Part shown: positions 2,532 through 32,906 of the stretch, piece by piece | How positions within the stretch are numbered: the first letter of the stretch is position 1 | Layout of the letters: each line of letters opens with the position of its first letter | Assembly (NCBI GenBank): GCA_964390275.1 | Contig: CAYMHQ010000003.1 | Coordinates: forward strand, 1 to 39,360 | DNA from: an uncultured Coriobacteriaceae bacterium | Lineage (GTDB): Bacteria > Actinomycetota > Coriobacteriia > Coriobacteriales > UMGS124 | DNA: 39,360 nucleotides | Direction: 5' to 3' | The notes under the pieces: model-generated | What the model saw: the letters and a program-made list of their open reading frames with translations, nothing else | Told to the model about the DNA's origin: nothing | Database searches by the model: none | Made by a program: the position numbers and the translations under genes

Positions 2532-3464
2532 ATGAGCAAGGTCCTTGTCTTCGGCCATAAGAACCCCGATAACGACGCGATCATGTCCGCGGTCGTGTTC
2601 TCGCGCATCGCCGCCGCGCTCGACCCCGACAACGAGTACGTCGCCTGCCGCCTCGGCGCGATGCCCGGCGAGAGCGCCAAACTGCTCGAGCAGTTCGGCA
2701 TCCCCGAGCCCCAGCTCCTCGAGAAGATCGAGCCCGCCGAGGAGAAGTGCAAGGTCATCCTGACCGACCACAACGAGCTCTCCCAGACGGTCGACGGCAT
2801 CGAGAACGCGCAGATTGTCGCGGTCATCGACCACCACCGCATCGCCGACGTCACCACCGCCCAGCCCATCGCGTTCATCAACCTGCCCTGGGGCTCGAGC
2901 TGCACAGTCATCGCCAAGCTGTTCGAGGCCACCGGCACCGAGCTCCCCGACGACCTCGCCACGCTGCTTCTCTCGGCCATGATGACCGACACGGTCATGC
3001 TCAAGTCGCCCACCACCACGGCGGTCGACCAGGACGTCGCGGAGAAGCTCGGCGCCCGCCTCGGCCTCGACCCGGTCGCGTTCGGCGCCCAGGTCTTCAA
3101 GAGCCGCGGGGCCGACGGGTTCACGCCCGAGCAGATGGTCTCGCGCGACATCAAGCGCTTCGAGATCGGCGGCAAGGCGGTCTACATCGGCCAGTACGAG
3201 ACCGTGAACAAGGAGCCCGTGCTCGAGCAGGCCGAGGCTCTGCGCGCGGCGATGGAGGAGTACCGCGTCGCCAACGGCGGCGACTCCCTCGTGCTCCTCG
3301 TGACCGACATCATCGAGGAGGGCTCGCAGGTCTTCGCCTGCGGCGACGTCTCGGTCGTCGAGCGCGGCCTTGGCATCGTGACCTCCCCCGAGGGCGTCTG
3401 GATGCCCGGCGTGCTCTCCCGCAAGAAGCAGGTCGCCGCGCCCCTCATCGCCGCGGCCGAGTAA
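2532..3464 (+). CDS. ppaC: Manganese-dependent inorganic pyrophosphatase (family II, DHH/DHHA2)
   Basis: MSKVLVFGHKNPDNDAIMSAVVFS, LTDHNE and IDHHR motifs, at the typical ~310 aa length. An AGGAGTAGG RBS precedes the ATG. Confidence 0.9.
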   Translation: MSKVLVFGHKNPDNDAIMSAVVFSRIAAALDPDNEYVACRLGAMPGESAKLLEQFGIPEPQLLEKIEPAEEKCKVILTDHNELSQTVDGIENAQIVAVIDHHRIADVTTAQPIAFINLPWGSSCTVIAKLFEATGTELPDDLATLLLSAMMTDTVMLKSPTTTAVDQDVAEKLGARLGLDPVAFGAQVFKSRGADGFTPEQMVSRDIKRFEIGGKAVYIGQYETVNKEPVLEQAEALRAAMEEYRVANGGDSLVLLVTDIIEEGSQVFACGDVSVVERGLGIVTSPEGVWMPGVLSRKKQVAAPLIAAAE

Positions 3465-11388: not shown

Positions 11389-13962
11389 CTACCCGATCCG
11401 CTCGAAGAGATGCCCGGGGTTCGCCCCGGGCTCGCGCGGGTCGGGGGCCCTGCCGACGGCGGCCGCCTCGAGCGCGCGCCTCATCCGGGCGACCGCGCGG
11501 GCCGTCTCGTCGCAGGAGAGGACCCGCGCGTCCACCATGAACCGGGTCACGCCCATGCCGATGAGCTCGGGCACCTGGGGCGTCGCGTCGAGCGGGCCCG
11601 CCTGCCAGAGGCGCGACCTTCCGAGGGCGTCGCTCGTGACGAGGGATGGGCGGTCGAACTCGTCGCGCAGCGTGAGCCGCCGGGCACGCCGCTCGCACGA
11701 GGCGCACCGCTGCGCGCAGGGGCCCATCGCCTGGAGCAGGCAGTGCTCGGTCGTCATGGTGCGCTGGTGGCCGTAGACCACGATGCCCAGGGGGAGCCGC
11801 GTCGTGGCGGCGAGCGTCGCGATCTCCATGAGCTCGAGCTCGGGGGAGAGCCACACGCCCGCCGCCCCGGCGCGCTCCATCTCCTCGAACGCGACGTGGT
11901 TGTGGAGCGGCAGCGTGTTCCAGAGCCAGGGCGCGCACCCGCGCTCGACGGCGAGCGAGAGCCAGCCCACCGTGCCGACCCCCGCCTCGCGACCGTTCGC
12001 GAAGAGCCCCTCGAGGCGCCGTATATCGGACTCCCTGCTCACCTCGTCGAAGAGCGGGACCACGCCCTCGGGCCAGTCCTCTGCGCCGCCTTCCGCGAGG
12101 TCGCGCCTGCCGCTCGAACCTGGGCCGAGCGCGAGGTCGTCGGCGGGGGCGTAGACAACCGTAGCGCCTTCGTCGAGGGCCGCGCGCGCCGCGGCAGGGG
12201 AGGTGACGAGCGCGCACACCCCCGGACGCCCCGCCTCCCGGTCGGAAGCGCCCCCGGACGCACGTCCCGCGACCCTCCGCCGCGCCTCGACGCTGCACGG
12301 CGGCTCGATGGCTTCCCTCGCGCGCGTCTCCCACGGCTCAAGGATGGCCTCCTCGAGCATCTCGGCCGCGCGCGCCCGCAGCGCGTGGAGCGCGGAGAAG
12401 CCCATCCCCACGCCCTCGTCGAGCTCGACCTGCCAGCCCGCCACCTCGAAGGGGCTCGTCCCGAACCTCCCCACGTGCTCCATGACGTCCTCGACCGTCA
12501 CGCTCTTCGTGCGCGCTGCCTCCACGGTCGCGCCCTCCGCGACCACGCGCACGACGCCGTCCCCGAGCGCTGGGTGGCAGTCGCCCGCCACCGTCGCGAG
12601 CTCGATCGCCAGTGGCTCCCCCAGCCGTGCCGTGACGCGCACGTCGACGCGCCGCTTGCGCGGGTACCTGCGGGCGGCGTACTCGCGGGCGCGCGCCATG
12701 CCCTCCTCGCTGCGGATGACGCGCACGGGGCATCCGGCGCGCATGGGGCGGGGGAGCGCGAGCGTGAGCGTCTCGCCGGCCTCGCAGTCGCGCGGCGCCG
12801 GCACCGTCACGTAGTCGTCGAACTCGTCGGGGTCGCGGATCTCGAGCAGGTCCCCGGTCCCCACCGGCTCGTCGAGCGCGACCGTCGCCCGGCGCTCGCC
12901 CGCGAAGGTCACGACGCCGGCGAGCTGCCCGCGGTTGTTGCCGCGCTCGTAGGACATCATGTCGGGCCCGCTCTCGCCGCGCAGGTACGCGTTCGTGAAA
13001 TCCCTGTTGAAGGCCCTGGCGAGGGCGCGCATGACCTCGGGCGTCGCCTCCGGGTCGCCGCCGCGCGCGTACTCGTCGAGCGCCTCGCGGTAGCAGCCCA
13101 CGACGGTCCCCACGTAGTCGGGCGCCTTCATGCGCCCCTCAACCTTGAGCGCGGAGCAGCCTGCCTCGGCAAGCTCGCCTATCATCCCCACGGTGCAGTT
13201 GTCGCGCGGCGAGAGGAGGCGCGTCCCGCACGCGCGGGAGACGTCATTCCCCGCCTCGTCGAGCAGGCGGTAGGGGAGCCTGCAGGGCTGGCGGCAGAGC
13301 CCGCGGTTCGCCGACCTGCCGCGCTGGAAGCTGCTGAGCAGGCACTCGCCCGAGTAGCACACGCAGAGCGCGCCGTGCCCGAACACCTCGAGTTCGACCC
13401 CTTCGTGCGAGCAGGCCTCGATCTCGCCGAGCGAGAGCTCGCGCGAGAGCGTCACCCGCGAGCAGCCCCGGTCGCGCGCGAACCGCACGCCGCGCGGCTC
13501 GTGGACGTTCGCCTGGGTCGAGAGGTGGAGCTCCGCCTGCGGCCACAGCTCGTGCACCGCCCGCAGGAGGCCCCAGTCCTGCACGATGAACGCGTCGGCG
13601 CCCGCCTCGATGCAGTCGTGGACGAGGGCGAGGGCGTCTGCCAGCTCGTCCTCGCGGATGAGGATGTTCACGGTCACGTAGACGCGCGACCCGGCGAGGT
13701 GTGCGAGCCGGCACGCCTCGCGGAACGCCTCGCCGTCGAGGTTGTCGGCGTTCCTCCGCGCGTTGAAGGCCCCCTGCCCGCAGTAGATCGCGTCGGCGCC
13801 CGCTGCGAGCGCGGCCTTGAACGCGTCGAACGAGCCGCCCGGGGCGAGCAGCTCCGGCACGCGCCTGCGACCCGCGGTCTTGGTGGGGTCCGCCTCGGAC
13901 GCGAGCTCTGTTTCGGTCGTGCGCGCCTCGGGGGACGTCTGGTCTGAGGAGATGGGGGGCAT
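11389..13962 (-). CDS. U32-family protein with two tandem U32-like modules
   Basis: Module 1 carries ELLAPGGSFDAFKAALAAGADAIYCG and GALCVCYSGECLLSS..RSANRGLCRQPCR. Module 2 repeats the same layout: LSPELELMEI...VVYGHQRTMTTEHCLLQAMGPCAQRCASCERR. The gene is convergent with the S10 gene, with only 12 nt between the two stops. Confidence 0.85.
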   Translation of the reverse strand: MPPISSDQTSPEARTTETELASEADPTKTAGRRRVPELLAPGGSFDAFKAALAAGADAIYCGQGAFNARRNADNLDGEAFREACRLAHLAGSRVYVTVNILIREDELADALALVHDCIEAGADAFIVQDWGLLRAVHELWPQAELHLSTQANVHEPRGVRFARDRGCSRVTLSRELSLGEIEACSHEGVELEVFGHGALCVCYSGECLLSSFQRGRSANRGLCRQPCRLPYRLLDEAGNDVSRACGTRLLSPRDNCTVGMIGELAEAGCSALKVEGRMKAPDYVGTVVGCYREALDEYARGGDPEATPEVMRALARAFNRDFTNAYLRGESGPDMMSYERGNNRGQLAGVVTFAGERRATVALDEPVGTGDLLEIRDPDEFDDYVTVPAPRDCEAGETLTLALPRPMRAGCPVRVIRSEEGMARAREYAARRYPRKRRVDVRVTARLGEPLAIELATVAGDCHPALGDGVVRVVAEGATVEAARTKSVTVEDVMEHVGRFGTSPFEVAGWQVELDEGVGMGFSALHALRARAAEMLEEAILEPWETRAREAIEPPCSVEARRRVAGRASGGASDREAGRPGVCALVTSPAAARAALDEGATVVYAPADDLALGPGSSGRRDLAEGGAEDWPEGVVPLFDEVSRESDIRRLEGLFANGREAGVGTVGWLSLAVERGCAPWLWNTLPLHNHVAFEEMERAGAAGVWLSPELELMEIATLAATTRLPLGIVVYGHQRTMTTEHCLLQAMGPCAQRCASCERRARRLTLRDEFDRPSLVTSDALGRSRLWQAGPLDATPQVPELIGMGVTRFMVDARVLSCDETARAVARMRRALEAAAVGRAPDPREPGANPGHLFERIG

Positions 13963-14229: not shown

Positions 14230-15381
14230 TTGAACGAAGGTCAGACAGCCGGCCTGTTCTCGTACGAGGTCCTGGCCGAGGACCCTACCACCCACGCCCG
14301 CGCCGGCGTCTTCCACACGGCCCACGGCGACATCCACACCCCCGTCTTCATGCCCGTCGGCACCAAGGGCACGGTGAAGGGGCTGCTCCCCGAGGTCGTC
14401 AGGTCGCTCGGCGCGCAGATCGTCCTCGCGAACACCTACCACCTCGAGATGCGCCCCGGCTCGCGGGTTGTCGAGGGCCTCGGCGGGCTGCATGAGTTCA
14501 TGCGGTGGGATCGCCCCATCCTCACCGACTCGGGCGGGTTCCAGGTCTTCTCGCACGGCGACCTCGTTAAGCTCTCGAACGAGGGCGTGGCGTTCCGCGT
14601 CGACGACTACGACGGCGCCCACGTCTTCTGGACGCCCGAGGAGAACATGGCCATCCAGCAGCGTCTGGGGGCCGACATCGTGATGCAGCTCGACCAGTGC
14701 CCGGGCTACCCGGCCGAGCGCTCCTTCGTCGAGCGCGCCGTGGAGCTCTCAAGTATGTGGGCCGAGCGCTGCTTCAAGGCCCACACCAGGCCCGACCAGG
14801 CGCTCTTCGGCATCGTCCAGGGCGGCATGCACCTCGACCTTCGCCTTCGCTCGCTCGAGCACCTCGAGTCGTGCGGTGACTTCCCCGGCTACGGCATCGG
14901 CGGCTACAGCGTGGGGGAGGAGCACGACGTCATGTTCGAGACGCTCGCCCCCCTCGTGTCCGAGCACATGCCGCGCAACAAGCCCCGCTACCTGATGGGC
15001 GTCGGCAACCCCACCACGCTCGTGCGCGGCGTGGCGTGCGGCATCGACATGTTCGACTGCGTGCTGCCCACGCGCACCGCCCGCTCCGGCACGGCGTTCT
15101 CGCACACCGGCCGCATGAACATGCGCAACGCCCGCTATGCGACCGACGCGGGCCCGCTCGACCCGCAGTGCCGCTGCCCCGTCTGCACGGGCGGCTACTC
15201 GCGCGGCTATCTGCGCCATCTCGTCACGCAGAAGGAGATGCTCGGCGGCATCCTGCTCTCGATGCACAACGTGTTCTTCCTCGTCGACCTCATGGACCGC
15301 GCCCGCGAGGCGATCATGGAGGGCCGCTACGGGGCGTTCGTCGACGACTGGATGGCGAGCGAGGCGGCGAACGACTACTGA
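14230..15381 (+). CDS. tgt: Queuine tRNA-ribosyltransferase (tRNA-guanine transglycosylase)
   Basis: PVFMPVGTKGTVKG, LTDSGGFQVFS and the zinc motif CRCPVCTG...H. TTG start 10 nt after GAGGAGG. Confidence 0.9.
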   Translation: MNEGQTAGLFSYEVLAEDPTTHARAGVFHTAHGDIHTPVFMPVGTKGTVKGLLPEVVRSLGAQIVLANTYHLEMRPGSRVVEGLGGLHEFMRWDRPILTDSGGFQVFSHGDLVKLSNEGVAFRVDDYDGAHVFWTPEENMAIQQRLGADIVMQLDQCPGYPAERSFVERAVELSSMWAERCFKAHTRPDQALFGIVQGGMHLDLRLRSLEHLESCGDFPGYGIGGYSVGEEHDVMFETLAPLVSEHMPRNKPRYLMGVGNPTTLVRGVACGIDMFDCVLPTRTARSGTAFSHTGRMNMRNARYATDAGPLDPQCRCPVCTGGYSRGYLRHLVTQKEMLGGILLSMHNVFFLVDLMDRAREAIMEGRYGAFVDDWMASEAANDY

Positions 15382-15527
15382 CGACGTGCAGACCGTCTGG
15401 TGAGTCGCGCCTCTCGCCTTCCGGCGGGCAGCTATCGTCTATACTGATTTTTTATGCGTCTTTGCGGGGCCGTTATGCATGCGCGCCCCGTGGACATGCG
15501 TCCGTTTTGTGACTTTGGAAGGTGCGT

Positions 15528-17051
15528 ATGGCTGACGAAAACAAGGAAGAGCGGGAGAGCGCCGCTGCGGCCTGGGCCCAGGCCACCGGCGGGGGAGCCG
15601 GGAAGGGCTCCTCGAGACCGTCCAAGAAGCGCGGCGGGAAGAAGCGCGGGCACCGCTTCCCGGCGGAGGCGCGCAAGTACGCGGGCACGCTCATCGCGCT
15701 GCTCGTGATACTCGTGATCTGCGTCATCGGGTTCACCCCGCTCGGCGAGAAGATCACCCAGGGCCTCGACATCCAGGGCGGCGTCTCGGTGATCATGACC
15801 GCCACCAAGCCCGACGGCTCTGCCGTTACGGACACCGACATGGACTCGGCCGTGACCGTCGTCACGAACCGCGTGAACTCGCTCGGCGCGAGCGAGGCCA
15901 CGGTGCAGCGCCAGGGCACGAACCAGATCCTCATCCAGATCCCGGGCGCGACCGACGCGCAGCAGGTCATCGACACGATCGGCACCACGGGCAGCCTCGA
16001 GTTCGTCGACCTCAACGATATCGGCGACCAGGACGCGCTCAACCGCATCACGCTCGGCGTCAAGAACGTCAAGCTCGAGCCGGGCACCTACACCGCGTTC
16101 ATGACCGGCGACCAGATTCGCACGGTGAGCATCGGCCAGGAGTCCCAGGGCAGCGCGTACTACGCGGTGAACCTCAAGCTCGACTCCGAGGGCACCGAGG
16201 CTTTCGCCGAGGTCACCTCGTACCTCTCCGCCACGCACGGCGCCATCGCGATCGTGCTCGACGGCGTGGTCCAGAGCGCGCCCTCCGTCCAGAGCTCGAT
16301 CCTCACCGGCGAGGTCTCGATCACGGGCAGCTACTCGCTCGAGGACGCGCAGGCGTTCAAGACGGTCCTCGAGTCGGGCGCCCTGCCCGTCACGCTCGAG
16401 TACTCCGAGTCGAGCTTCGTGGGCCCGACCCTCGGCCAGGACTCGCTCAACGAGGGCCTCATCGCCGTCGTGGTCGGCTTCGTGCTGATCCTCGCGTACC
16501 TCCTGTTCTTCTATCGCGGCCTCGGCCTCATCACCGCCGGCGCGCTGCTCGTGTTCGGCATCGTCTACCTCGGCATCTTCGCGCTTCTGTCCTCGATGGG
16601 CCTCTTCGCCCTGTCGCTGCCGGGCCTCGCGGGCATCGTGCTCACGATCGGCATGGCGGCCGACTCGTCGATCCTCGTCCTCGAGCGCTTCCGCGAGGAG
16701 CTGCGCCTCGGGCGCGCCGTCCGCGTGGCCGCGGTCACCGGCTCCAAGCACGGCATCGGCACCGCGATCGACGCCGGCCTCGTGTCGCTCATCTCGGCGT
16801 TCGGCCTGTTCTTCCTCACGACCGGCTCGGTGCGCGGCTTCGCGCTCACGCTCGGGCTCGGCGTCCTGTGCTCGTTCTTCACGCTGCTCTGCTTCACCAC
16901 GCCGGCGCTCCGCCTGCTCGGCAGGGGCGCCATAGACGCGCACCCCGTCTTCTGGGGCGTGTCCGAGGACATCGCGGAAGGGCGCGCCCTGGGCGGTGGT
17001 TCGAAGACCGTCTCGCCGTCGAACAAGAAGGGGGGCGGTCTCGTTGCGTAG
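15528..17051 (+). CDS. secD: Protein translocase subunit SecD
   Basis: GLDIQGGVSVIM, a large periplasmic domain and a C-terminal 6-TM block. ATG 15528 is preferred (GGAAGG RBS) over the in-frame GTG at 15522. The N-terminus is a Lys/Arg/Gly-rich extension. Confidence 0.9.
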   Translation: MADENKEERESAAAAWAQATGGGAGKGSSRPSKKRGGKKRGHRFPAEARKYAGTLIALLVILVICVIGFTPLGEKITQGLDIQGGVSVIMTATKPDGSAVTDTDMDSAVTVVTNRVNSLGASEATVQRQGTNQILIQIPGATDAQQVIDTIGTTGSLEFVDLNDIGDQDALNRITLGVKNVKLEPGTYTAFMTGDQIRTVSIGQESQGSAYYAVNLKLDSEGTEAFAEVTSYLSATHGAIAIVLDGVVQSAPSVQSSILTGEVSITGSYSLEDAQAFKTVLESGALPVTLEYSESSFVGPTLGQDSLNEGLIAVVVGFVLILAYLLFFYRGLGLITAGALLVFGIVYLGIFALLSSMGLFALSLPGLAGIVLTIGMAADSSILVLERFREELRLGRAVRVAAVTGSKHGIGTAIDAGLVSLISAFGLFFLTTGSVRGFALTLGLGVLCSFFTLLCFTTPALRLLGRGAIDAHPVFWGVSEDIAEGRALGGGSKTVSPSNKKGGGLVA

Positions 17052-18153
17052 CCACTTCAAGCACGAGATTCAGTTCGTCAAGTACCGCAAGGTCCTGTTC
17101 GCCATCTCCATCGCCATGGTCGTCATCGCCCTCGTGGGCCTCCTCGCGCGCGGCCTCAACTTCGGCATCGACTTCCTGGGCGGCACCCAGGTCACGTTCA
17201 ACGAGACGGGCGACGTCACCATCTCCCAGATGCGCGACGCGCTCAACGAGCAGGGTGTGACCGACGCGGTGGTCCAGACCACCGTCTCGGGCGACTCGAA
17301 CGGCTTCATGGTGCGCACCGGGGAGACCGACCCCGTCGTCGCCAACGAGGTCGCGAGCGCCGTGGCCTCCTCGCTCGGCCTCGACGACGGCAGCTACAGC
17401 AGCAAGACCATCGGCCCCAACTGGGGCGGCGACGTCACGCGCGCCATGGTCATCGCGTTCTTCGTCGTCATCGCGCTCATCGTCATCTTCGTCTCCGTGC
17501 GCTACGAGCTCAAGATGGCCCTCATGGGCGTCCTCTCGCTCGTGCAGGTCCTCGTCATCGTGGCCGGCATCTACGCGTGGACGCAGTTCGAGGTCACGCC
17601 CAACGTCGTGGCGGCGCTCCTCACCATCATGGGCTACTGCCTCTACGACACGGTCGTCGTCTTCCACCGCGTGAACGAGAACATCCGCACGCTCAAGGAC
17701 GGCGTTCACCGCACGGCCCTGCAGATCACGAACTGGTCCGAGAACCAGGTCATCGTGCGCTCGATCAACACGGCGCTCACGAGCGTGGTCCCGGTCGTCG
17801 CGATGCTCGTCTTCGGCGGAGAGACCCTGCGCGGCTTCGCCTTCGCGATGACCGTGGGCCTCGTGCTCGGCGCCTACTCGTCGATCGCCGTCGCCGCCCC
17901 CGCCTACGCGCTCTGGAAGGGCCGCGAGCCCGAGTGGCGCGCAGCCGAGCAGAAGTACGGCGAGGCGGCGCAGCTCGCGGCGAAGTCCCAGGCCGCCGCG
18001 CCCGCCCAGCCCGCCGCTGATGGCGACACCTCTGCCGGCGACTCCGCTGCGAGCTCGGCCCCCGCGTCCTCCGCGAAGTCCGGCGCACGTCCCGGCGAGC
18101 AGGCCGAGCCTCGGCCCCGTAAGGCCAAGGTGAAAAAGAATAAGGTGGTGTGA
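17044..18153 (+). CDS. secF: Protein translocase subunit SecF
   Basis: LNFGIDFLGGTQV and a 6-TM block. TTG 17044 (AAGGGGGG upstream) overlaps the secD stop by 8 nt. The upstream part of the track ORF (16996-) overlaps the secD coding sequence. The C-terminus is an Ala/Gln/Ser-rich tail that turns basic at the end. Confidence 0.8.
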   Translation: MRSHFKHEIQFVKYRKVLFAISIAMVVIALVGLLARGLNFGIDFLGGTQVTFNETGDVTISQMRDALNEQGVTDAVVQTTVSGDSNGFMVRTGETDPVVANEVASAVASSLGLDDGSYSSKTIGPNWGGDVTRAMVIAFFVVIALIVIFVSVRYELKMALMGVLSLVQVLVIVAGIYAWTQFEVTPNVVAALLTIMGYCLYDTVVVFHRVNENIRTLKDGVHRTALQITNWSENQVIVRSINTALTSVVPVVAMLVFGGETLRGFAFAMTVGLVLGAYSSIAVAAPAYALWKGREPEWRAAEQKYGEAAQLAAKSQAAAPAQPAADGDTSAGDSAASSAPASSAKSGARPGEQAEPRPRKAKVKKNKVV

Positions 18154-21100
18154 TGACCTCTCTCGCGCTCAACAAGCGCTGGGAAGTCGTCCCATACGAC
18201 GCCCAGGCCGCCGAGCTCATCGAGGCGGCCTGCGGCGTCACCCCGCTGGTGGCCCGCATCATGGCGGGCCGCGGCATTTGTACGGTGGACGACGCCCGGC
18301 GCTTCCTGACACCCTCGCTCGACCGCGACTGGGAGGACCCCCTGCTCATCCCGGGGCTCGCCCAGGTGGTCGACCGTCTCGAGGCCGCGCTCAGGGCCGG
18401 CGAGTCCGTCGTGGTCTTCGGCGACTTCGACGTCGACGGCATCAGCGCCACATGCCTGCTCACGAGCGCGCTGAGGGACTTGGGTGGGCGCGTCACACCG
18501 TTCATTCCGCGGCGCTTCGACGAGGGGTACGGCCTTTCGGCCGCCGCCGTCGAGCGCCTCTTCGACTCGGTTCGACCCGACCTCATCGTCACCGTCGACA
18601 CCGGCATCGCCTCGGCGCGCGAGGTCGAGGCACTGCTCGCCGAGGGGGTCGACGTCGCGGTCACCGACCATCACGAGCCGGGCGACCTCGTCCCGCAGGG
18701 CGTCCCCGTGTGCGACCCCAAGCTCGACCCCGCGTGCCCGTCCCGCGAGCTCGCGGGCGTCGGCGTCGCCCTCAAGGTCGTCTGCGTCCTGGGCGCCCGC
18801 ATGGGCCAGCCCGACCTCTGGCGCTCCTACACCGACGTGGCGACGCTCGGCACGGTGAGCGACATGATGCTCCTCACGGGGGAGAACCGCTCCCTCGTCT
18901 CCGACGGCATGTCCCGGATGCGGCGCGTCCAGCGGTGCGGACTCGCCGCCCTCGCCCTGCACGCGCGCCGGCAGCTCGAGACGCTCACGGCCGACGACCT
19001 CGCGTACTCCCTCATCCCGCGCATGAACGCCGCCGGGCGCATGGACGACCCGGCGATCGCGCTCGACCTCCTCATGGCGAAGGAGCCCGCCGAGGCCGAG
19101 CGCCTCGCCGCCCGCCTCGAGGAGATCAACCTCGAGCGCCGCTCGATCGAGGCCCAGCTCGCCGAGGAGGCCATCGCGATGGTCGAGTCCTCCTACGACG
19201 GCGGTCGCGTCATCGTCGTGGGCGGCGAGGGCTGGCACGAGGGCGTCAAGGGCATCGTCGCGAGCCGGCTCGTCGGGCGCTACCACGTGCCCGTGCTCCT
19301 CTTCACCATCAGCGACGGCATCGCGCGCGGCTCGGGCCGCTCCGTGGGCTCCGTCAACCTCTTCCAGGCCGTCGAACAGTGCTCCGACCTGCTCGTCCGC
19401 TTCGGCGGGCACGCCGGCGCCGTGGGCGTCACGCTCGAGGCGGGCAACCTCGACGCGTTCCGCGACCGCATGCAGGAGGTCCTCTCCGCCCTGCCGCAGG
19501 ACGCGTTCGAGGACAGGAGCTACGTCGCCGCGCAGGTGAGCCTCTCCGAGCTCTCCGTCGAGTCCGTCAAGGCCCTCTCGGTCCTGCAGCCGTTCGGCCA
19601 GGGCAACGAGGCCCCCGTGCTCGCCGTTCGCGGCGTCACGATGGGCGACCGCCGCAGGCGCGGCGAGGGGGGCCGGCACTTCTCGTTCATCGCGAGCGAC
19701 GCGACGGGCGTCTCCCAGTGCATCATGTTCAACGCCGACGACGTCGAGACGCTCTCCGAGTATGACGGCGCCGTCGACATCGTCTTCGAGCCTAAGGTCG
19801 AGACCTGGCAGGGCCGCGTGAGCTGCAAGCTCCACGTGAAGGACGTCCTGCGCCGCGACGTGCCCGGCCCCGGCGACGTGTCGCCCGCGGCGGAGTTCGT
19901 CGACGGCCTTTTCGAGCGCGCGGAGGAGTTCCTGAACGAGGGCGAGCTCGCGGGCCTCGCGAACGCGAGCCAGTTCCACACCAAGATCGTCGGCGTCTCG
20001 TTCGAGGGCCGGCAGGCCGTCGCGGCATCGCTCGAGGTGGGGCAGCGCCTGCTCGTCGTGCGCGAGCCCGACAACCCCCACGACCCCAACGCCGTCGCCG
20101 TCCGCACCGAGGACGGGCGTCCCGTCGGCTACCTCAAGCGCCTCATCGCCGCCGCCATCGCCCCCAAGATGGACCGCGGGGCTGAGTACACGGCCACCGT
20201 GCAGTCGCTCACCGGCGGCTCCTCCGCGTCGCCCTCCCTCGGCGTGAACGTTCTCGTGAGTCTTCGCACGGGCGCCGGCTCCATCGACGAGCTCGCCGTG
20301 GTGCGCGAGCGCGCGGCGGAGCGCGAGCGTCTCGGCGCCATGGACACGACGCGCCTCACCGAGGAGCTCCGCCGCCTGCTCATCGGCGACCACGACCTCC
20401 TGCCGGCACAGGCGCGCGCCCTCGACAACCTCGACGCGGGCGTCAACACGCTCTGTGTCATGGCGACGGGCCGCGGCAAGTCGCTCATCTTCCACGTGCA
20501 CGCGGCCCGTTGCGCCCTCATGCGCAAGCGCGCGAGCGTGTTCGTGTACCCCCTGCGCGCGCTCGTCTCCGACCAGGCCTTCCACCTGAGCCAGGTGTTC
20601 GACCAGCTCGGCATGGCCACGCGCGTGCTCACCGGCGAGACGCCGCTCGAGGAGCGCGACACGGTGTTCGAGGGCCTCGCGCGCGGAGACGTCGACATCG
20701 TGCTCACGACGCCCGAGTTCCTCTCGATTCACTCAGCGCGCTTCGCCGAGGGCGGGCGCGTCGGCTTCGTAGTGGTCGACGAGGCCCACCACGCCGGCCA
20801 GGCCCAGGGCGGCTCGCGCCCCGCGTACCTCGAGATGCCCCGCGTGCTCGCCGAGCTCGGCCAGCCCACGGTGCTTGCCGTGACCGCCACCGCGAGCGAC
20901 CGCGTCGCGTCCGAGATACGGCGTCTCCTCGGCATCCCCGACGCCGGCGTTGTGATCGACCCCTCGTGCCGCGAGAACCTCCACATCGTCGACGAGCGTG
21001 GCGGCGCGGGCAGAGATGACCGGCTCGTGAGCCTGCTCGCCTCGGGGGAGAAGACGCTCGTCTACGTCAACTCCCGCGAGCAGACGGTGGCCCTCGCGCG

Positions 21101-21839
21101 CATGCTCCGGCGCCGCGTGTGGGCGTACGGGTCGCGCGTCGCGTTCTACAACGGCGGCCTCTCCCGGCCCGACCGCGCCTCGGTCGAGTCGGCGTTCCGC
21201 AAGGGCGACCTCATGCTCGTCGTCTCGACGAGCGCGTTCGGCGAGGGGGTCAACCTCCCCGACGTGCGCCACGTCGTGCTCTACCACCTGCCGTTCGACG
21301 AGGTGGAGTTCAACCAGATGAGCGGCCGCGCGGGTCGCGACGGCTCTGACTCGTGGATCCATCTCGCCTACGGCCCGGACGACGCGCGCATCAACGAGCG
21401 CATCCTCGCCGCCGACGCCCCGGCCCGCGACGACCTCGTCACGCTCTACCGGGCGCTGCTCCTGCGCAACCGCGCCGCGCGCCTCGAGGGGGCCGACGAC
21501 TTCGGGGTCACGAACGCCGAGCTTGCGGGCGACTGCCGCGCCGTGTCCCTGCCCTGCACGCTCAACGACAAGGGCGTCTCGTGCGGCATCTCGATCTTCC
21601 GCGAGCTGGGCTTCGTCTCTACCTCGGGCTACGGCATCGGCCGGCGCATCTCGGTCTGCCCGTCGCCCGAGCACATGGACCTGACCCGCTCGATCCGCTA
21701 TCTCGAGGGCCTGCGCGCGACCGAGGAGTTCTCGCGCTACAAGGCCTGGGCGCTCGAGGCCTCGGCCCCCGAGGTGCTCGCGCGCATCAACAGGCCCATC
21801 GTCCCCGGCGCGCCCGGGGCCCCGGGCGGTCTGCCGTAG
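18153..21839 (+). CDS. recJ: Fusion protein: RecJ ssDNA exonuclease, HIRAN domain and RecQ-like SF2 helicase
   Basis: One uninterrupted frame.
- RecJ motifs: FGDFDVDGISA, TVDTGI, VTDHHEPG (DHH codons at 18666-18674), GGHAGAVG.
- HIRAN: VGVSFEGRQ...VVREPDNPHDPNAVAV...VGYL (about 19974-20270).
- Helicase: ATGRGKS (about 20460), VVDEAHH (DEAH codons at 20778-20789), VTATAS, QMSGRAGRDG.
The ATG overlaps the secF TGA (TGATG), and an in-frame GTG at 18150 is also possible. Confidence 0.85.
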   Translation: MTSLALNKRWEVVPYDAQAAELIEAACGVTPLVARIMAGRGICTVDDARRFLTPSLDRDWEDPLLIPGLAQVVDRLEAALRAGESVVVFGDFDVDGISATCLLTSALRDLGGRVTPFIPRRFDEGYGLSAAAVERLFDSVRPDLIVTVDTGIASAREVEALLAEGVDVAVTDHHEPGDLVPQGVPVCDPKLDPACPSRELAGVGVALKVVCVLGARMGQPDLWRSYTDVATLGTVSDMMLLTGENRSLVSDGMSRMRRVQRCGLAALALHARRQLETLTADDLAYSLIPRMNAAGRMDDPAIALDLLMAKEPAEAERLAARLEEINLERRSIEAQLAEEAIAMVESSYDGGRVIVVGGEGWHEGVKGIVASRLVGRYHVPVLLFTISDGIARGSGRSVGSVNLFQAVEQCSDLLVRFGGHAGAVGVTLEAGNLDAFRDRMQEVLSALPQDAFEDRSYVAAQVSLSELSVESVKALSVLQPFGQGNEAPVLAVRGVTMGDRRRRGEGGRHFSFIASDATGVSQCIMFNADDVETLSEYDGAVDIVFEPKVETWQGRVSCKLHVKDVLRRDVPGPGDVSPAAEFVDGLFERAEEFLNEGELAGLANASQFHTKIVGVSFEGRQAVAASLEVGQRLLVVREPDNPHDPNAVAVRTEDGRPVGYLKRLIAAAIAPKMDRGAEYTATVQSLTGGSSASPSLGVNVLVSLRTGAGSIDELAVVRERAAERERLGAMDTTRLTEELRRLLIGDHDLLPAQARALDNLDAGVNTLCVMATGRGKSLIFHVHAARCALMRKRASVFVYPLRALVSDQAFHLSQVFDQLGMATRVLTGETPLEERDTVFEGLARGDVDIVLTTPEFLSIHSARFAEGGRVGFVVVDEAHHAGQAQGGSRPAYLEMPRVLAELGQPTVLAVTATASDRVASEIRRLLGIPDAGVVIDPSCRENLHIVDERGGAGRDDRLVSLLASGEKTLVYVNSREQTVALARMLRRRVWAYGSRVAFYNGGLSRPDRASVESAFRKGDLMLVVSTSAFGEGVNLPDVRHVVLYHLPFDEVEFNQMSGRAGRDGSDSWIHLAYGPDDARINERILAADAPARDDLVTLYRALLLRNRAARLEGADDFGVTNAELAGDCRAVSLPCTLNDKGVSCGISIFRELGFVSTSGYGIGRRISVCPSPEHMDLTRSIRYLEGLRATEEFSRYKAWALEASAPEVLARINRPIVPGAPGAPGGLP

Positions 21840-21934: not shown

Positions 21935-24433
21935 GTGGTCGACAAAGAGAACCCCGCCCCCCGCGATCAGTCGCAGCAGCCCCTGCAGCCCCCGCAGGCT
22001 TCGCAGCCCCAGCCGGCCCTCCAGCAGGCGCCGCGGCAGCCCCAGCCGCCCCTCCAGCAGGCGCCGCAGCAGCCCCAGCAGGCCCAGCCTGCGCCGACGG
22101 CTCCGCAGCCTTCTGTCCCGGCGGTCGTCCCCGAAACCCCGGGCGACGGCTCCGACAACTTCCCCGCGCTCGTCGAGGCGGCCAGGGGCTACCTGTCGCC
22201 CGAGGACGTCGCGCGCATCGAGAAGGCCTACCGCTACGCGTTCGAGCACCATCGGGGCCAGAAGCGCAAGAGCGGCGAGCCCTACATCAACCATCCCGTC
22301 GAGGTCGCCATCATCCTCGCCGTGAACCTGCACTCCGACGCCGACACCCTCTGCGCCGGCCTGCTCCACGACACGGTCGAGGACACCGACGCGACGCTCG
22401 ACGACCTCAGGGAGCTCTTCGGCGACCAGGTGGCCGAGCTCGTCGACGGCGTCACCAAGCTCACGAACATCTCGGTCGACTCCCTCTCCGAGCAGCAGGC
22501 CCTCAACCTGCGCAAGATGTTCCTCGCTATGGCCAAGGACATCCGCGTCATCATCATCAAGCTCGCCGACCGCCTTCACAACATGCGCACCCTCATGGCG
22601 ATCCCCGAGGACCGCCGCATCTTCAAGGCCCACGAGACCATGGAGATCTACGCGCCCCTCGCGAACCGCCTCGGCATCAGCTCGATCAAGTGGGAGCTCG
22701 AGGACCTCTCGTTCTTCTACCTGAACCCCGCCAAGTACCGCCAGATCGCGCGCATGGTGGCCGAGTCGCGCGACGAGCGCGAGCGCTACCTCGAGGAGGT
22801 CATCTCGATCCTGCGCGGCGAGCTCGACCGCGCCGGCATCAAGGGCCTGCGCATCGTGGGTCGTCCCAAGCACCTGTACTCCATCTACATGAAGATGAAG
22901 AACAAGGGCAAGGACTTCAGCGACATCTACGACCTCATCGCGCTGCGCGTCATCACCGAGGACGTCCGCGACTGCTACGGCGTCCTGGGGGCCGTCCACT
23001 CGCTGTGGACCCCCATGCCGGGTCGGTTCAAGGACTACATCGCGATGCCAAAGTACAACATGTACCAGTCGCTCCACACCACGGTCATCGGCCCGGCCGG
23101 CCGCCCGCTCGAGATCCAGATCCGCACCGAGGAGATGCACCAGCACGCCGAGTACGGCATCGCGGCGCACTGGCTCTACAAGCAGGCGGGCAACTCCAAG
23201 GGGAACAAGGAGGACGCGGCGCAGCGGTTCGACAACCAGCTCGCGTGGCTCGGCCGCACGCTCGACTGGACCCAGCAGGACGACCTCTCCGACCCCCAGG
23301 AGTTCCTCGAGGCGCTCAAGATCGACCTGTTCGACAGCGAGGTCTTCGTCTTCACGCCCAAGGGCGAGGTGCAGATCCTGCGCGCCGGCTCCACACCGCT
23401 CGACTTCGCGTACGCGGTCCACACCGAGGTCGGCAACCACTGCATCGGCGCCAAGGTGAACGGGTCGGTCGTGCCGCTCTCCTACGAGCTCCAGATGGGC
23501 GACCGTGTCGAGATCCTCACGCAGAACAACGCCCACCCGAGCCGTGACTGGCTGAACATCGTCAAGACGCCGGGTGCGCGCTCAAAGATCCGCAGCTACT
23601 TCAGCAAGGTGACGAAGGCCGACGACTCGGCGCAGGGGCGCGACATTCTCGCGAAGGAGATGCGCAAGGCCGGCCTCGGCATCTCGACGCCGCGCACCGT
23701 GCGCGCCCTCGGCAAGGTCGCGCTCGACCTCGGCCTCGCCTCGGTTGACGACCTCTTCGTCGCCGTGGGCTCGGGCAAGACCTCCCCGCGCGTCGTCGCC
23801 CAGAAGGTCAAGGCGGTCTTCGACGAGACGCCCGACTCCCAGGCCGAGGCGGAGAAGCGCGCGTTCGCGAGCCTCACGACGCAGGCGACCCCGCCGCGCA
23901 TCTCGCGCTCGGTCCAGAACGCCGTCGAGCGCAAGAAGCGCGCCCTCTCGAACAACGGCGTCATCGTGCAGGGGGCCGACGTCGACATGCTCGTGAGGCT
24001 CGCGCGCTGCTGCAACCCCGTCGTCGGCGACGAGATCGTGGGGTTCGTCACGCGCGGCCGCGGGGTGAGCGTCCACCGGGCCGACTGCCCCAACGTCGCG
24101 AACCTCAGCAAGTCGGAGGGGAGGATGATCGACGTCCGCTGGGACACCGGCCAGGCCTCGCTCTTCCAGGTCGAGATCCTCGTCGAGGCCATCGACCGCA
24201 CGCGCCTGCTCGTGGACATCTCGGCCGCTATCAGCGACTCGGGCGCGAACATCCTCTCGTGCGGCACGCGCACCGACCGCATGGGCATCTCGAACATGCG
24301 CTTTCTCGTGGAGATGAGCGAGATCCAGCGTCTCGACTCCCTGCTCCACTCGATCATCCGTGTGAAGGGGGTCATCGACGCGCGAAGGGCGCTGCCGAGC
24401 GACTTCCAGGAAAGGAAGCACCGTGGCCGTTAA
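21935..24433 (+). CDS. relA: Bifunctional (p)ppGpp synthetase/hydrolase, RelA/SpoT (Rel) family
   Basis: HD hydrolase motif HRGQKRKSGEPYINHP, synthetase region (DLIALRVI, YQSLHTTV), TGS domain and C-terminal ACT domain. GTG start after AAGGTGAGA. The first ~65 aa are a Gln/Pro-rich extension. Confidence 0.9.
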   Translation: MVDKENPAPRDQSQQPLQPPQASQPQPALQQAPRQPQPPLQQAPQQPQQAQPAPTAPQPSVPAVVPETPGDGSDNFPALVEAARGYLSPEDVARIEKAYRYAFEHHRGQKRKSGEPYINHPVEVAIILAVNLHSDADTLCAGLLHDTVEDTDATLDDLRELFGDQVAELVDGVTKLTNISVDSLSEQQALNLRKMFLAMAKDIRVIIIKLADRLHNMRTLMAIPEDRRIFKAHETMEIYAPLANRLGISSIKWELEDLSFFYLNPAKYRQIARMVAESRDERERYLEEVISILRGELDRAGIKGLRIVGRPKHLYSIYMKMKNKGKDFSDIYDLIALRVITEDVRDCYGVLGAVHSLWTPMPGRFKDYIAMPKYNMYQSLHTTVIGPAGRPLEIQIRTEEMHQHAEYGIAAHWLYKQAGNSKGNKEDAAQRFDNQLAWLGRTLDWTQQDDLSDPQEFLEALKIDLFDSEVFVFTPKGEVQILRAGSTPLDFAYAVHTEVGNHCIGAKVNGSVVPLSYELQMGDRVEILTQNNAHPSRDWLNIVKTPGARSKIRSYFSKVTKADDSAQGRDILAKEMRKAGLGISTPRTVRALGKVALDLGLASVDDLFVAVGSGKTSPRVVAQKVKAVFDETPDSQAEAEKRAFASLTTQATPPRISRSVQNAVERKKRALSNNGVIVQGADVDMLVRLARCCNPVVGDEIVGFVTRGRGVSVHRADCPNVANLSKSEGRMIDVRWDTGQASLFQVEILVEAIDRTRLLVDISAAISDSGANILSCGTRTDRMGISNMRFLVEMSEIQRLDSLLHSIIRVKGVIDARRALPSDFQERKHRGR
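22004..22069 (+). repeat. In-frame 33-bp tandem repeat (two copies plus a partial third) inside the relA 5' region
   Basis: 22004-22036 and 22037-22069 differ at 2 of 33 positions. They encode QPQPALQQAPR and QPQPPLQQAPQ. CAGCCCCAGC starts again at 22070. Confidence 0.9.
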
Positions 24434-32446: not shown

Positions 32447-32522
32447 GGGGGTATAGCTCAGTTGGGAGAGCGCTTGACTGGCAGTCAAGAGGTCAGGGGT
32501 TCGAATCCCCTTATCTCCACCA
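32447..32522 (+). tRNA. tRNA-Ala (anticodon GGC), copy 1
   Basis: 76-nt cloverleaf folded by hand. It has the G3:U70 alanine identity pair, anticodon loop CTGGCAG, T-loop TTCGAAT and an encoded CCA. Confidence 0.95.
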
Positions 32523-32531
32523 TCACAGTAC

Positions 32532-32606
32532 GGGCGATTGGCTCAGGGGCAGAGCACATCCTTCACACGGATGGGGTCGCTGGTTCAAATCCAGCATCGC
32601 CCACCA
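32532..32606 (+). tRNA. tRNA-Val (anticodon CAC)
   Basis: 75-nt cloverleaf with acceptor GGGCGAT/ATCGCCC, anticodon loop TTCACAC, T-loop TTCAAAT and an encoded CCA. Confidence 0.95.
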
Positions 32607-32618
32607 TTTGATTTCAGG

Positions 32619-32649
32619 TCGGGGGCCGAAAGGCCCCCGATTTCGTTTT
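32619..32649 (+). terminator. Rho-independent terminator after tRNA-Val
   Basis: TCGGGGGCC pairs with GGCCCCCGA across a GAAA tetraloop. TTTCGTTTT follows. Confidence 0.8.
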
Positions 32650-32785
32650 AGGACTAGTTTGGGATTGCTCTGCATCGCCGGTATCACTGCGGTGGCCCGA
32701 TCTGGATTCCCGAAGCGGATTCCATGGCGATATTTGAACGAATGATGAATTGCGAGCCGGTTTGCAACATTCGCTCGATTTCGCT

Positions 32786-32813
32786 TTGCATCGTCGGAAT
32801 CAAGTGCTATATT
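32786..32813 (+). promoter_or_regulatory. Candidate promoter for the second tRNA-Ala
   Basis: TTGCAT (32786-32791), a 16-nt spacer, then TATATT (32808-32813). It lies in a locally AT-richer spacer, about 18 nt upstream of the tRNA. Confidence 0.5.
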
Positions 32814-32830
32814 AACAAAAGTGTTCTTGC

Positions 32831-32906
32831 GGGGGTATAGCTCAGTTGGGAGAGCGCTTGACTGGCAGTCAAGAGGTCAGGGGTTCGAATCCCCTTATCT
32901 CCACCA
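32831..32906 (+). tRNA. tRNA-Ala (anticodon GGC), copy 2
   Basis: Identical over all 76 nt to copy 1 at 32447-32522. Confidence 0.95.

Follow-up and report, generated by a model that had tools for sequence, protein, structure and literature searches.

What kind of enzyme is made by a gene that begins as recJ, continues through a HIRAN domain and ends as a RecQ-like helicase? This question is raised by one open reading frame (ORF) in a stretch of 39,360 nucleotides (nt), termed here the window, from contig CAYMHQ010000003.1 of an uncultured Coriobacteriaceae bacterium (UMGS124). All three parts are identified by profile matches in a single frame at the chromosomal position of recJ, and the same arrangement is conserved in relatives from several phyla. 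The product is probably a single-polypeptide machine of the RecQ/RecJ type, which would resect 5′ strands and enlarge gaps with its HIRAN domain on the 3′-OH end. What we infer from the parts of this machine is the polarity of the helicase, that its two activities are coupled and what HIRAN does. The parts are divided as follows.

18153-21839, forward strand: RecJ-HIRAN-RecQ-like helicase-winged-helix ORF, 1228 codons plus stop, uninterrupted
18153-19844, forward strand: RecJ 5′-3′ single-stranded DNA (ssDNA) exonuclease core, residues 1-564 (Pfam and TIGR00644)
Residues 86-234: DHH (Pfam, 69.6 bits)
Residues 351-445: DHHA1 (Pfam, 51.1 bits)
Residues 460-564: RecJ_OB (PF17768), the OB fold after DHHA1 (Pfam, 74.4 bits)
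19845-19973, forward strand: helical linker, residues 565-607, part of the HIRAN-helicase module (predicted helices)
19974-20252, forward strand: HIRAN (PF08797), residues 608-700 (Pfam, 55.8 bits against a cut-off of 24.7, model positions 4-91 of 96)
20253-20384, forward strand: second helical linker, residues 701-744 (predicted helices, model residues 143-175)
20385-21422, forward strand: RecQ-like superfamily 2 (SF2) helicase core, residues 745-1090 (Pfam, Protein Data Bank (PDB) sequence and fold matches)
Residues 751-918: DEAD (Pfam, 75.4 bits)
Residues 956-1064: Helicase_C (Pfam, 86.5 bits)
21423-21836, forward strand: C-terminal domain, residues 1091-1228, with a helical region, a winged helix and an [IV]xxPI.P tail (model)

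The frame itself is a real coding sequence. An earlier note on this DNA, made from the letters alone, described a single uninterrupted frame of 1228 amino acids whose start codon overlaps the stop of secF, and both observations hold: positions 18153-21839 read through to one terminal stop, and the ATG at 18153 overlaps the secF TGA (18151-18153) as tgATG. An alternative in-frame GTG lies one codon 5′ of this ATG, at 18150. Every motif quoted in the note is present in the translation (FGDFDVDGISA, TVDTGI, VTDHHEPG, GGHAGAVG, VGVSFEGRQ, REPDNPHDPNAVAV, ATGRGKS, VVDEAHH, VTATAS and QMSGRAGRDG). When the frame is divided into five segments, third-position G+C (GC3) is 0.95-0.97 in every one, a level shared by the neighboring tgt, secD, secF and relA genes, and GC3 by segment reveals no compositional seam at the domain junctions. 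A protein 100% identical to the window protein is already present in ENA (P0001).

The window DNA is 68.5% G+C, so that long chance ORFs are expected in it. An antisense shadow ORF of 942 codons (17904-20732, reverse strand) lies opposite the recJ fusion, and another of 845 codons (11410-13947, forward strand) is antisense to a U32 peptidase gene (11389-13962, reverse strand). Both fail a codon-position filter on GC3 and second-position G+C (GC2), and both are typical high-GC artefacts.

A three-part architecture had been proposed from motifs, and profile searches place its boundaries securely: DHH, DHHA1, RecJ_OB, HIRAN, DEAD and Helicase_C all score above their Pfam gathering cut-offs. The claim that the first part is a complete RecJ is likewise borne out. 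In addition to its three Pfam domains, this part passes the equivalog cut-off of the TIGR00644 recJ model (445.6 bits against 396.9) over model positions 2-545 of 546, and such a score with nearly full model coverage means that the N-terminal 564 residues constitute a complete RecJ. D91, D93, D149, D172-H173-H174, D237 and G418-G419-H420, which represent DHH motifs I-IV with their metal-binding Asp and His residues and the DHHA1 GGH motif, are invariant among 28 sequences. By these criteria the RecJ part is a true orthologue, and 5′-3′ exonuclease activity on ssDNA is predicted for it.

The second part belongs to a family that is best understood in the eukaryotic protein HLTF. In the six-strand barrel of HLTF HIRAN, ssDNA occupies a cavity flanked by Y72 and Y93, and the domain is considered a reader of 3′ ends (PMC4666394). 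Bacterial HIRAN proteins have been described only as stand-alone proteins or as fusions to phosphoesterases and nucleases (PMC4666394). In the window, the placement of HIRAN at about 19974-20270 by motif reading is refined by Pfam to 19974-20252, and the domain aligns to structures of human HLTF HIRAN with an E-value of about 5e-6 (REPDNPHDPNAVAV against RDPNNPYDKNAIKV, with NPHD aligned to NPYD). An AlphaFold2 (AF2) model of residues 570-1228, built with 53 homologues, has a predicted local distance difference test score (pLDDT) of 89.8 and a predicted template modeling score (pTM) of 0.78. Its HIRAN region (model residues 38-137, block pLDDT mostly 84-97) contains six strands plus helices, a number that agrees with the HLTF barrel, the comparison being one of strand count and not of barrel topology. 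Across 53 relatives the NPxDxNA signature is kept; N641 and A647 never vary, and at least 90% of these sequences retain D644 and F617. F617 occupies the position aligned by eye to HLTF Y72. The HLTF 3′-end pocket is thus partly conserved in the window protein, where D644, N641 and F617 are kept and the Y93 position is not. In the first linker, ahead of HIRAN, F587 is invariant across the aligned relatives.

The third part is a helicase motor with the expected SF2 motifs, namely motif 0 (Q753), the Walker A motif ATGRGKS (771-777), DEAH (876-879), TAT (912-914) and motif VI, QMSGRAGRD (1055-1063). Motifs 0, I, II, III and VI are invariant or nearly so among relatives. The top PDB sequence matches of the motor are RecQ catalytic cores (4tmu with E = 2e-38, 1oyw and 4q47), followed by RECQ4, WRN, RECQL5, RECQ1 and BLM, and the best PDB fold matches of the AF2 model are the cores of RecQ, RECQ1, RECQL5, WRN and BLM. 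The alignment to RecQ ends just ahead of the Zn domain, and the RecQ models score below their cut-offs: TIGR00614 (recQ_fam) reaches 160.2 bits against 219.8 over model positions 8-345 of 470, which is the core only, and TIGR01389 (recQ equivalog) reaches 172.9 bits against 640.2. The label “RecQ-like” in the earlier note was therefore pitched at the right level, as nothing matches the motor better than RecQ proteins in sequence and fold, yet neither RecQ scores nor RecQ signature elements are attained.

After the motor, residues 1091-1228 match no Pfam family. Modeled alone with AF2 (pLDDT 90.1), this C-terminal domain consists of a long helix, a winged helix and two helices. Foldseek relates it to generic winged-helix proteins only (MarR, Fur, ArsR and RbkR, all with E > 0.02 and so not significant), and to no RQC domain specifically. 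The protein ends in the motif [IV]xxPI.P, which is INRPIVP in the window (residues 1212-1218, nt 21786-21806) with P1215, I1216 and P1218 invariant. This tail is common to the fused proteins and to the stand-alone, phage-type and Eremiobacterota-type proteins discussed below. Of five shorter proteins read, only P0190 departs from it, with SPITP, and that protein is encoded 3′ of a full RecJ ORF. The tail could bind a partner or be part of the fold.

How far does the fusion persist? Among the best 120 clusters (90% identity) of homologues of the window protein, all are full length with 55-80% identity, and 116 carry every domain call including HIRAN. The named close homologues come from metagenome-assembled genomes (MAGs) of Coriobacteriales and Atopobiaceae and from Parafannyhessea umbonata, and all are labeled “single-stranded-DNA-specific exonuclease RecJ”. 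A HMMER scan with residues 600-1228 retrieves 884 clusters (50% identity) at E < 1e-30. The best 150 of these comprise 46 complete RecJ-HIRAN-helicase proteins, 20 complete RecJ-helicase proteins without HIRAN and 9 HIRAN-helicase proteins without RecJ, the remainder being fragments. A scan of one genome per GTDB species yields at least 599 stretches, at least 569 of them relatives, and the best 80 loci were analyzed further.

Among these 80 loci, HIRAN is present in 48, including those of Olsenella porci, O. intestinalis, Parafannyhessea, Atopobiaceae and many Coriobacteriia from soil, groundwater and peat, and it is absent in 32, almost all of them Collinsella. The C. aerofaciens and C. tanakaei proteins (about 1111-1146 residues, e.g. 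L068:4177-7509) are without HIRAN and keep all other domains by Pfam, and partial Eggerthellaceae entries are likewise RecJ-helicase proteins without it. The helicase core is the most conserved segment (54-83% identity), compared with 40-78% for RecJ in full-length matches, 35-67% for HIRAN and 38-66% for the C-terminal domain, which points to purifying selection on an active motor.

The fusion is found in three phyla. Most examples belong to the Coriobacteriia (Actinomycetota), among them Olsenella, Parafannyhessea and numerous uncultured lineages, and the full architecture is also present in Thermincola potens and T. ferriacetica (Bacillota; WP_013120088.1, UniProt D5XEJ8, 1233 residues). 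An Armatimonadota MAG encodes a RecJ-HIRAN-helicase protein (P0259, MBI4279602.1), but its DEAD N-lobe is undetected by Pfam and its Helicase_C is marginal, so that this motor may possibly be inactivated. A survey of how widely the architecture occurs, as the earlier note proposed, thus upholds the fusion and overturns its implied rarity: it is commoner than that, the default RecJ of a bacterial class. Judged by homology and position, the fusion is the standard RecJ orthologue of the Coriobacteriia, a class of gut and environmental bacteria.

Some database entries are helicase-only or split, and these bear on the idea that recJ and a helicase gene were joined in the window by an assembly or sequencing error, or that the helicase part is a decaying pseudogene. 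One locus, L036 (4227-7839), does have its RecJ out of frame, through a frameshift inside RecJ. It is the single exception among the 68 of the best 80 loci with closed upstream sequence: in the other 67, which are independent genomes, RecJ and helicase share one continuous frame. The splits that were examined are due to an ambiguous base at the RecJ/helicase junction (L086, 5304-8590) or to miscalled genes with RecJ and HIRAN on the same strand (L088, 4884-8653), and neither these two nor L036 represent true gene fission. Together with the identical ENA protein, the invariant helicase motifs and the uniform GC3, this leaves an artefact of either kind with practically no likelihood. A related candidate, that the “helicase-only” relatives of about 450-550 residues are separate genes, was rejected, as RecJ is encoded immediately 5′ of the helicase in the two cases examined on long contigs; most other helicase-only entries are fragments at contig ends.

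The neighbors of the gene that matter in the window are listed here.

14230-15381: tgt
15522-17051: secD
16996-18153, forward strand: secF, whose stop overlaps the recJ start (tgATG)
21935-24433, forward strand: relA/spoT, the conserved neighbor 3′ of the recJ fusion

The gene order is tgt-secD-secF-recJ fusion-relA/spoT, followed by a metallo-β-lactamase (MBL) hydrolase gene and deoC. In Gram-positive bacteria recJ is classically found in the order secDF-recJ-(apt)-relA, and the window gene sits in this canonical slot. Nearly all of the best 80 loci have relA 3′ of the fusion. Where enough sequence is available on the 5′ side, most HIRAN-bearing loci have secF there, and the Collinsella-type loci (L045, L049-L080) all lack it in that position. 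The remainder of the window is housekeeping chromosome, with the C-terminus of pcrA/uvrD, queH, pheA, ligA, tRNAs and an aminoacyl-tRNA synthetase gene. The only other DHH or helicase genes in these 39 kb are the PcrA/UvrD C-terminus (46-1008) and a DHH-DHHA2 gene (2532-3464). The latter, 15 kb upstream, is of the family-II pyrophosphatase type and is not a RecJ paralogue. A tRNA cluster at 32447-32906 contains tRNA-Ala(GGC), tRNA-Val(CAC) and a second tRNA-Ala(GGC), the two tRNA-Ala copies having the same Rfam score.

How might the parts work together? RecJ, a 5′-3′ ssDNA exonuclease, and a 3′-5′ helicase of the RecQ type (RecQ or RecS) resect DNA ends and enlarge daughter-strand gaps at their 5′ side (PMC12448304; PMC3378886). 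In the window protein, the helicase would track 3′ to 5′ on the 3′ tail at a break, or on the template in a daughter-strand gap or at a stalled fork, and would peel the complementary strand away from its 5′ end. The attached RecJ would then thread the displaced 5′ strand and degrade it 5′ to 3′, leaving 3′-ended ssDNA for RecFOR and RecA. The HIRAN domain would dock on a free 3′-OH, either a stalled nascent end or the 3′ tail, and thereby bring the enzyme to gaps, forks and ends or set its orientation there. A motor moving 3′ to 5′ and a nuclease moving 5′ to 3′ on the displaced strand travel the same physical way, which makes a covalent fusion geometrically coherent. The catalytic residues of both nuclease and helicase are invariant among relatives, in support of a coupled machine. 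The suggestion in the earlier note that unwinding, 5′ resection and 3′-end recognition are united in one chain fits these residues, the conserved residues of HIRAN and the persistence of the fusion, and the function itself is still something we infer.

Several observations weigh against this machine. The first group concerns the motor. The Zn domain is a signature of the extended RecQ family (PMC3378886), and the window protein has no Zn tetracysteine: past residue 1060 the sole partly conserved cysteine column is C1144 (83% of 53 sequences). Where RecQ has its aromatic-rich loop, SQWGHDFRPEY, the window protein has GQAQGGSRPAY, and Y892 is the only conserved aromatic residue there. No HRDC domain appears in a Pfam scan down to E = 0.1, and none is recognized by Foldseek in the C-terminal model. 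With these signature elements absent, the polarity, unwinding competence and mechanism of RecQ are not simply transferable to this protein. On present evidence from its sequence, the motor belongs to a distinct RecQ-like clade and is not a bona fide RecQ, as it fails on four of the RecQ features tested (family score, Zn tetracysteine, aromatic-rich loop and HRDC). The second group concerns the partners of the motor. The position of HLTF Y93 is occupied by H643 and is variable across the family; HIRAN is absent in Collinsella and Eggerthellaceae, and even in close relatives it is degenerate (P0016, P0026 and P0116) or deleted (P0027). Finally, HIRAN-helicase proteins without RecJ exist in Eremiobacterota and in mobile elements, so that coupling to RecJ is not obligatory.

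These RecJ-less proteins define the boundaries of the module. Stand-alone HIRAN-helicase-C-terminal domain proteins of about 620-700 residues are numerous, and they start with an “LF.(R/Q)A.E.L” helix. In the fused proteins this helix is the linker that follows RecJ_OB. This common N-terminal helix, taken with the common [IV]xxPI.P tail, sets a module boundary at about residue 570. As a side observation, JGI/IMG names RecJ-less HIRAN-helicases (P0135, P0291, P0304 and others) “single-stranded-DNA-specific exonuclease”, a label evidently transferred from the fused form.

One type of stand-alone gene is found on three long contigs (L081:6001-8043, L082:6001-7950 and L084:7001-9001) whose proteins are 57-86% identical to named proteins of Eremiobacterota (e.g. 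Aquilonibacter and Elarobacter). Here the HIRAN-helicase gene directly follows secD-secF, and so lies in the recJ slot, and no RecJ-coding sequence is found within 6-7 kb on either side. The arrangement suggests one of two histories: an ancestral fusion shed its RecJ part, or the module entered this locus independently.

The existence of HIRAN-helicases without RecJ, in Eremiobacterota and in phage-like modules beside SSB and RecU, is among the evidence for a different reading, in which the HIRAN-helicase acts mainly like HLTF or RecG: it would capture the nascent 3′ end and reverse forks or migrate branches, leaving RecJ merely to trim the 5′ strand, extruded or lagging, afterwards. A HIRAN domain joined to an SF2 motor follows the logic of HLTF and Rad5 (PMC4666394), the module matches phrog_6819, a “Holliday junction branch migration helicase”, at 91 bits, and E. 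coli RecQ itself contributes to fork reversal (PMC12448304). Such a fork remodeler is nonetheless unlikely. The motor is RecQ-like and not a double-stranded DNA (dsDNA) translocase of the SNF2 or RecG type, and the lineages that lost HIRAN kept the RecJ-helicase, which suggests that the core selected function is that of helicase plus nuclease.

Another type of stand-alone gene occurs on three phage- or plasmid-like contigs (L083:6003-8974, L085:6071-8974 and L089:4908-7884, the last from IMG/VR). A phrog_10048 gene lies directly 5′ of the HIRAN-helicase; its product, about 310-326 residues long, has no Pfam or PDB match and might be a nuclease or annealing counterpart of the helicase. SSB is encoded within 1.6 kb 3′ of the HIRAN-helicase in L085 and L089, and the downstream genes of L083 are without family match. 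Neighborhoods of this mobile type contain cI/Cro-like regulators, Sipho_Gp157, RecU, a partition protein and a DnaD-like initiator. A scan of IMG/VR with P0175 alone gives no match, and a scan with the alignment finds L089 as the single genuine viral-type locus, besides two chromosomal loci mislabeled as viral.

These replication modules raise the further idea that the helicase originated in mobile DNA and has a different job (replication restart, the replication of plasmids or phages, or phage conflict, for instance), with the RecJ fusion incidental and the two activities uncoupled. Matches of the helicase core to the PADLOC models DpdF and PsyrT are in keeping with it, but they are confined to the generic RecQ-like core. 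The window context is housekeeping, the fusion is stable at the recJ locus across the whole class, and isolated phage genomes (INPHARED) contain no close HIRAN-helicase relative, all of which makes an incidental fusion of mobile origin rather improbable. A role as a defense system was also considered and rejected, since the PADLOC matches (DpdF, PsyrT, BrxH and HamB) are only to the generic helicase core and the context is one of housekeeping.

Comparison of the variants indicates that HIRAN-helicase-C-terminal domain is an autonomous unit by its distribution: the RecJ-helicase survives the loss of HIRAN, and the HIRAN-helicase survives the loss of RecJ. A broader proposal for the single-chain resection machine can be built on this, although it is offered tentatively and is less likely than not to hold. 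In Coriobacteriia, one polypeptide would replace separate RecQ and RecJ as a self-contained presynaptic machine, in which HIRAN captures the 3′-OH at a break or on a stalled nascent strand, and thereby loads the motor in a fixed polarity and passes the displaced 5′ strand straight to RecJ. The HIRAN-helicase module would be autonomous and mobile, in some cases fused to RecJ, in others stripped of it (Eremiobacterota) or borrowed by phages.

No paper describing the RecJ-HIRAN-helicase architecture was found in the full-text literature searched, in which subscription journals are only partly covered; the earlier note knew of no characterized bacterial example, and none turned up here either. Two papers from the Aravind laboratory contain the word HIRAN in their reference lists only. 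The sequences have been public for years (e.g. D5XEJ8) and are annotated merely as “RecJ”. A single-chain enzyme of RecJ, HIRAN and RecQ-like helicase is therefore uncharacterized yet widespread, and it is a tractable biochemical lead rather than a conceptual surprise. To our knowledge, the function of HIRAN has so far been studied essentially only in eukaryotic HLTF and Rad5, and the fusion places a bacterial HIRAN in a defined housekeeping repair context. If the HIRAN-guided machine is real, bacteria would have their first example of resection that is guided by HIRAN and coupled to a helicase. RecQ and RecJ are textbook partners of the RecF pathway, and with a natural, stable fusion of the two types the coupling of unwinding to 5′ degradation could be studied in one chain, by structural and single-molecule methods. 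At the recJ locus of major human-gut genera (Collinsella, Olsenella and relatives), RecJ is seen only in its helicase-fused form. The labels “RecJ” (fused form, NCBI) and “exonuclease” (RecJ-less form, JGI) hide the helicase and spread annotation error.

The window protein resembles several known systems in part. RecQ or RecS and RecJ of E. coli and B. subtilis, which act in the RecF pathway, provide the same two types of activity, a DHH 5′-3′ exonuclease and a RecQ-type SF2 core, those of the window protein being predicted. In contrast to this pair, the window protein is one polypeptide with HIRAN in between, and its motor is without the RecQ Zn domain, aromatic-rich loop and HRDC. RqlH of the actinobacterium Mycobacterium smegmatis also has a RecQ-like motor, a non-canonical extension at its C-terminus and no HRDC, but it keeps the tetracysteine Zn domain, has a ComF-like domain, and contains neither RecJ nor HIRAN (PMC3378886).

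HLTF and Rad5 share with the window protein a HIRAN domain, with conserved NPxD, that is covalently joined to an SF2 ATPase. They differ in being SNF2 dsDNA translocases with an embedded RING, an N-terminal HIRAN and no nuclease, and the equivalent of Y93 is a histidine in the window protein. WRN, whose helicase is among the top fold matches, also combines a RecQ-type core and an exonuclease in one chain. Its nuclease is of the DEDD type and acts 3′-5′, and it has RQC and HRDC domains in addition, whereas the nuclease of the window protein is of the DHH type and is predicted to act 5′-3′.

The last comparison is with the helicase-nuclease machines AddAB, RecBCD and AdnAB and with the archaeal pair HAN-Hef. 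HAN, a RecJ-like nuclease, reportedly works with the SF2 helicase Hef at stalled forks. These machines and pairs are built from other folds (SF1 motors and PD-(D/E)XK nucleases), are multi-subunit or non-covalent, and none includes HIRAN; what all of them have in common with the window protein is the coupling of a motor to a nuclease for the processing of ends or forks.

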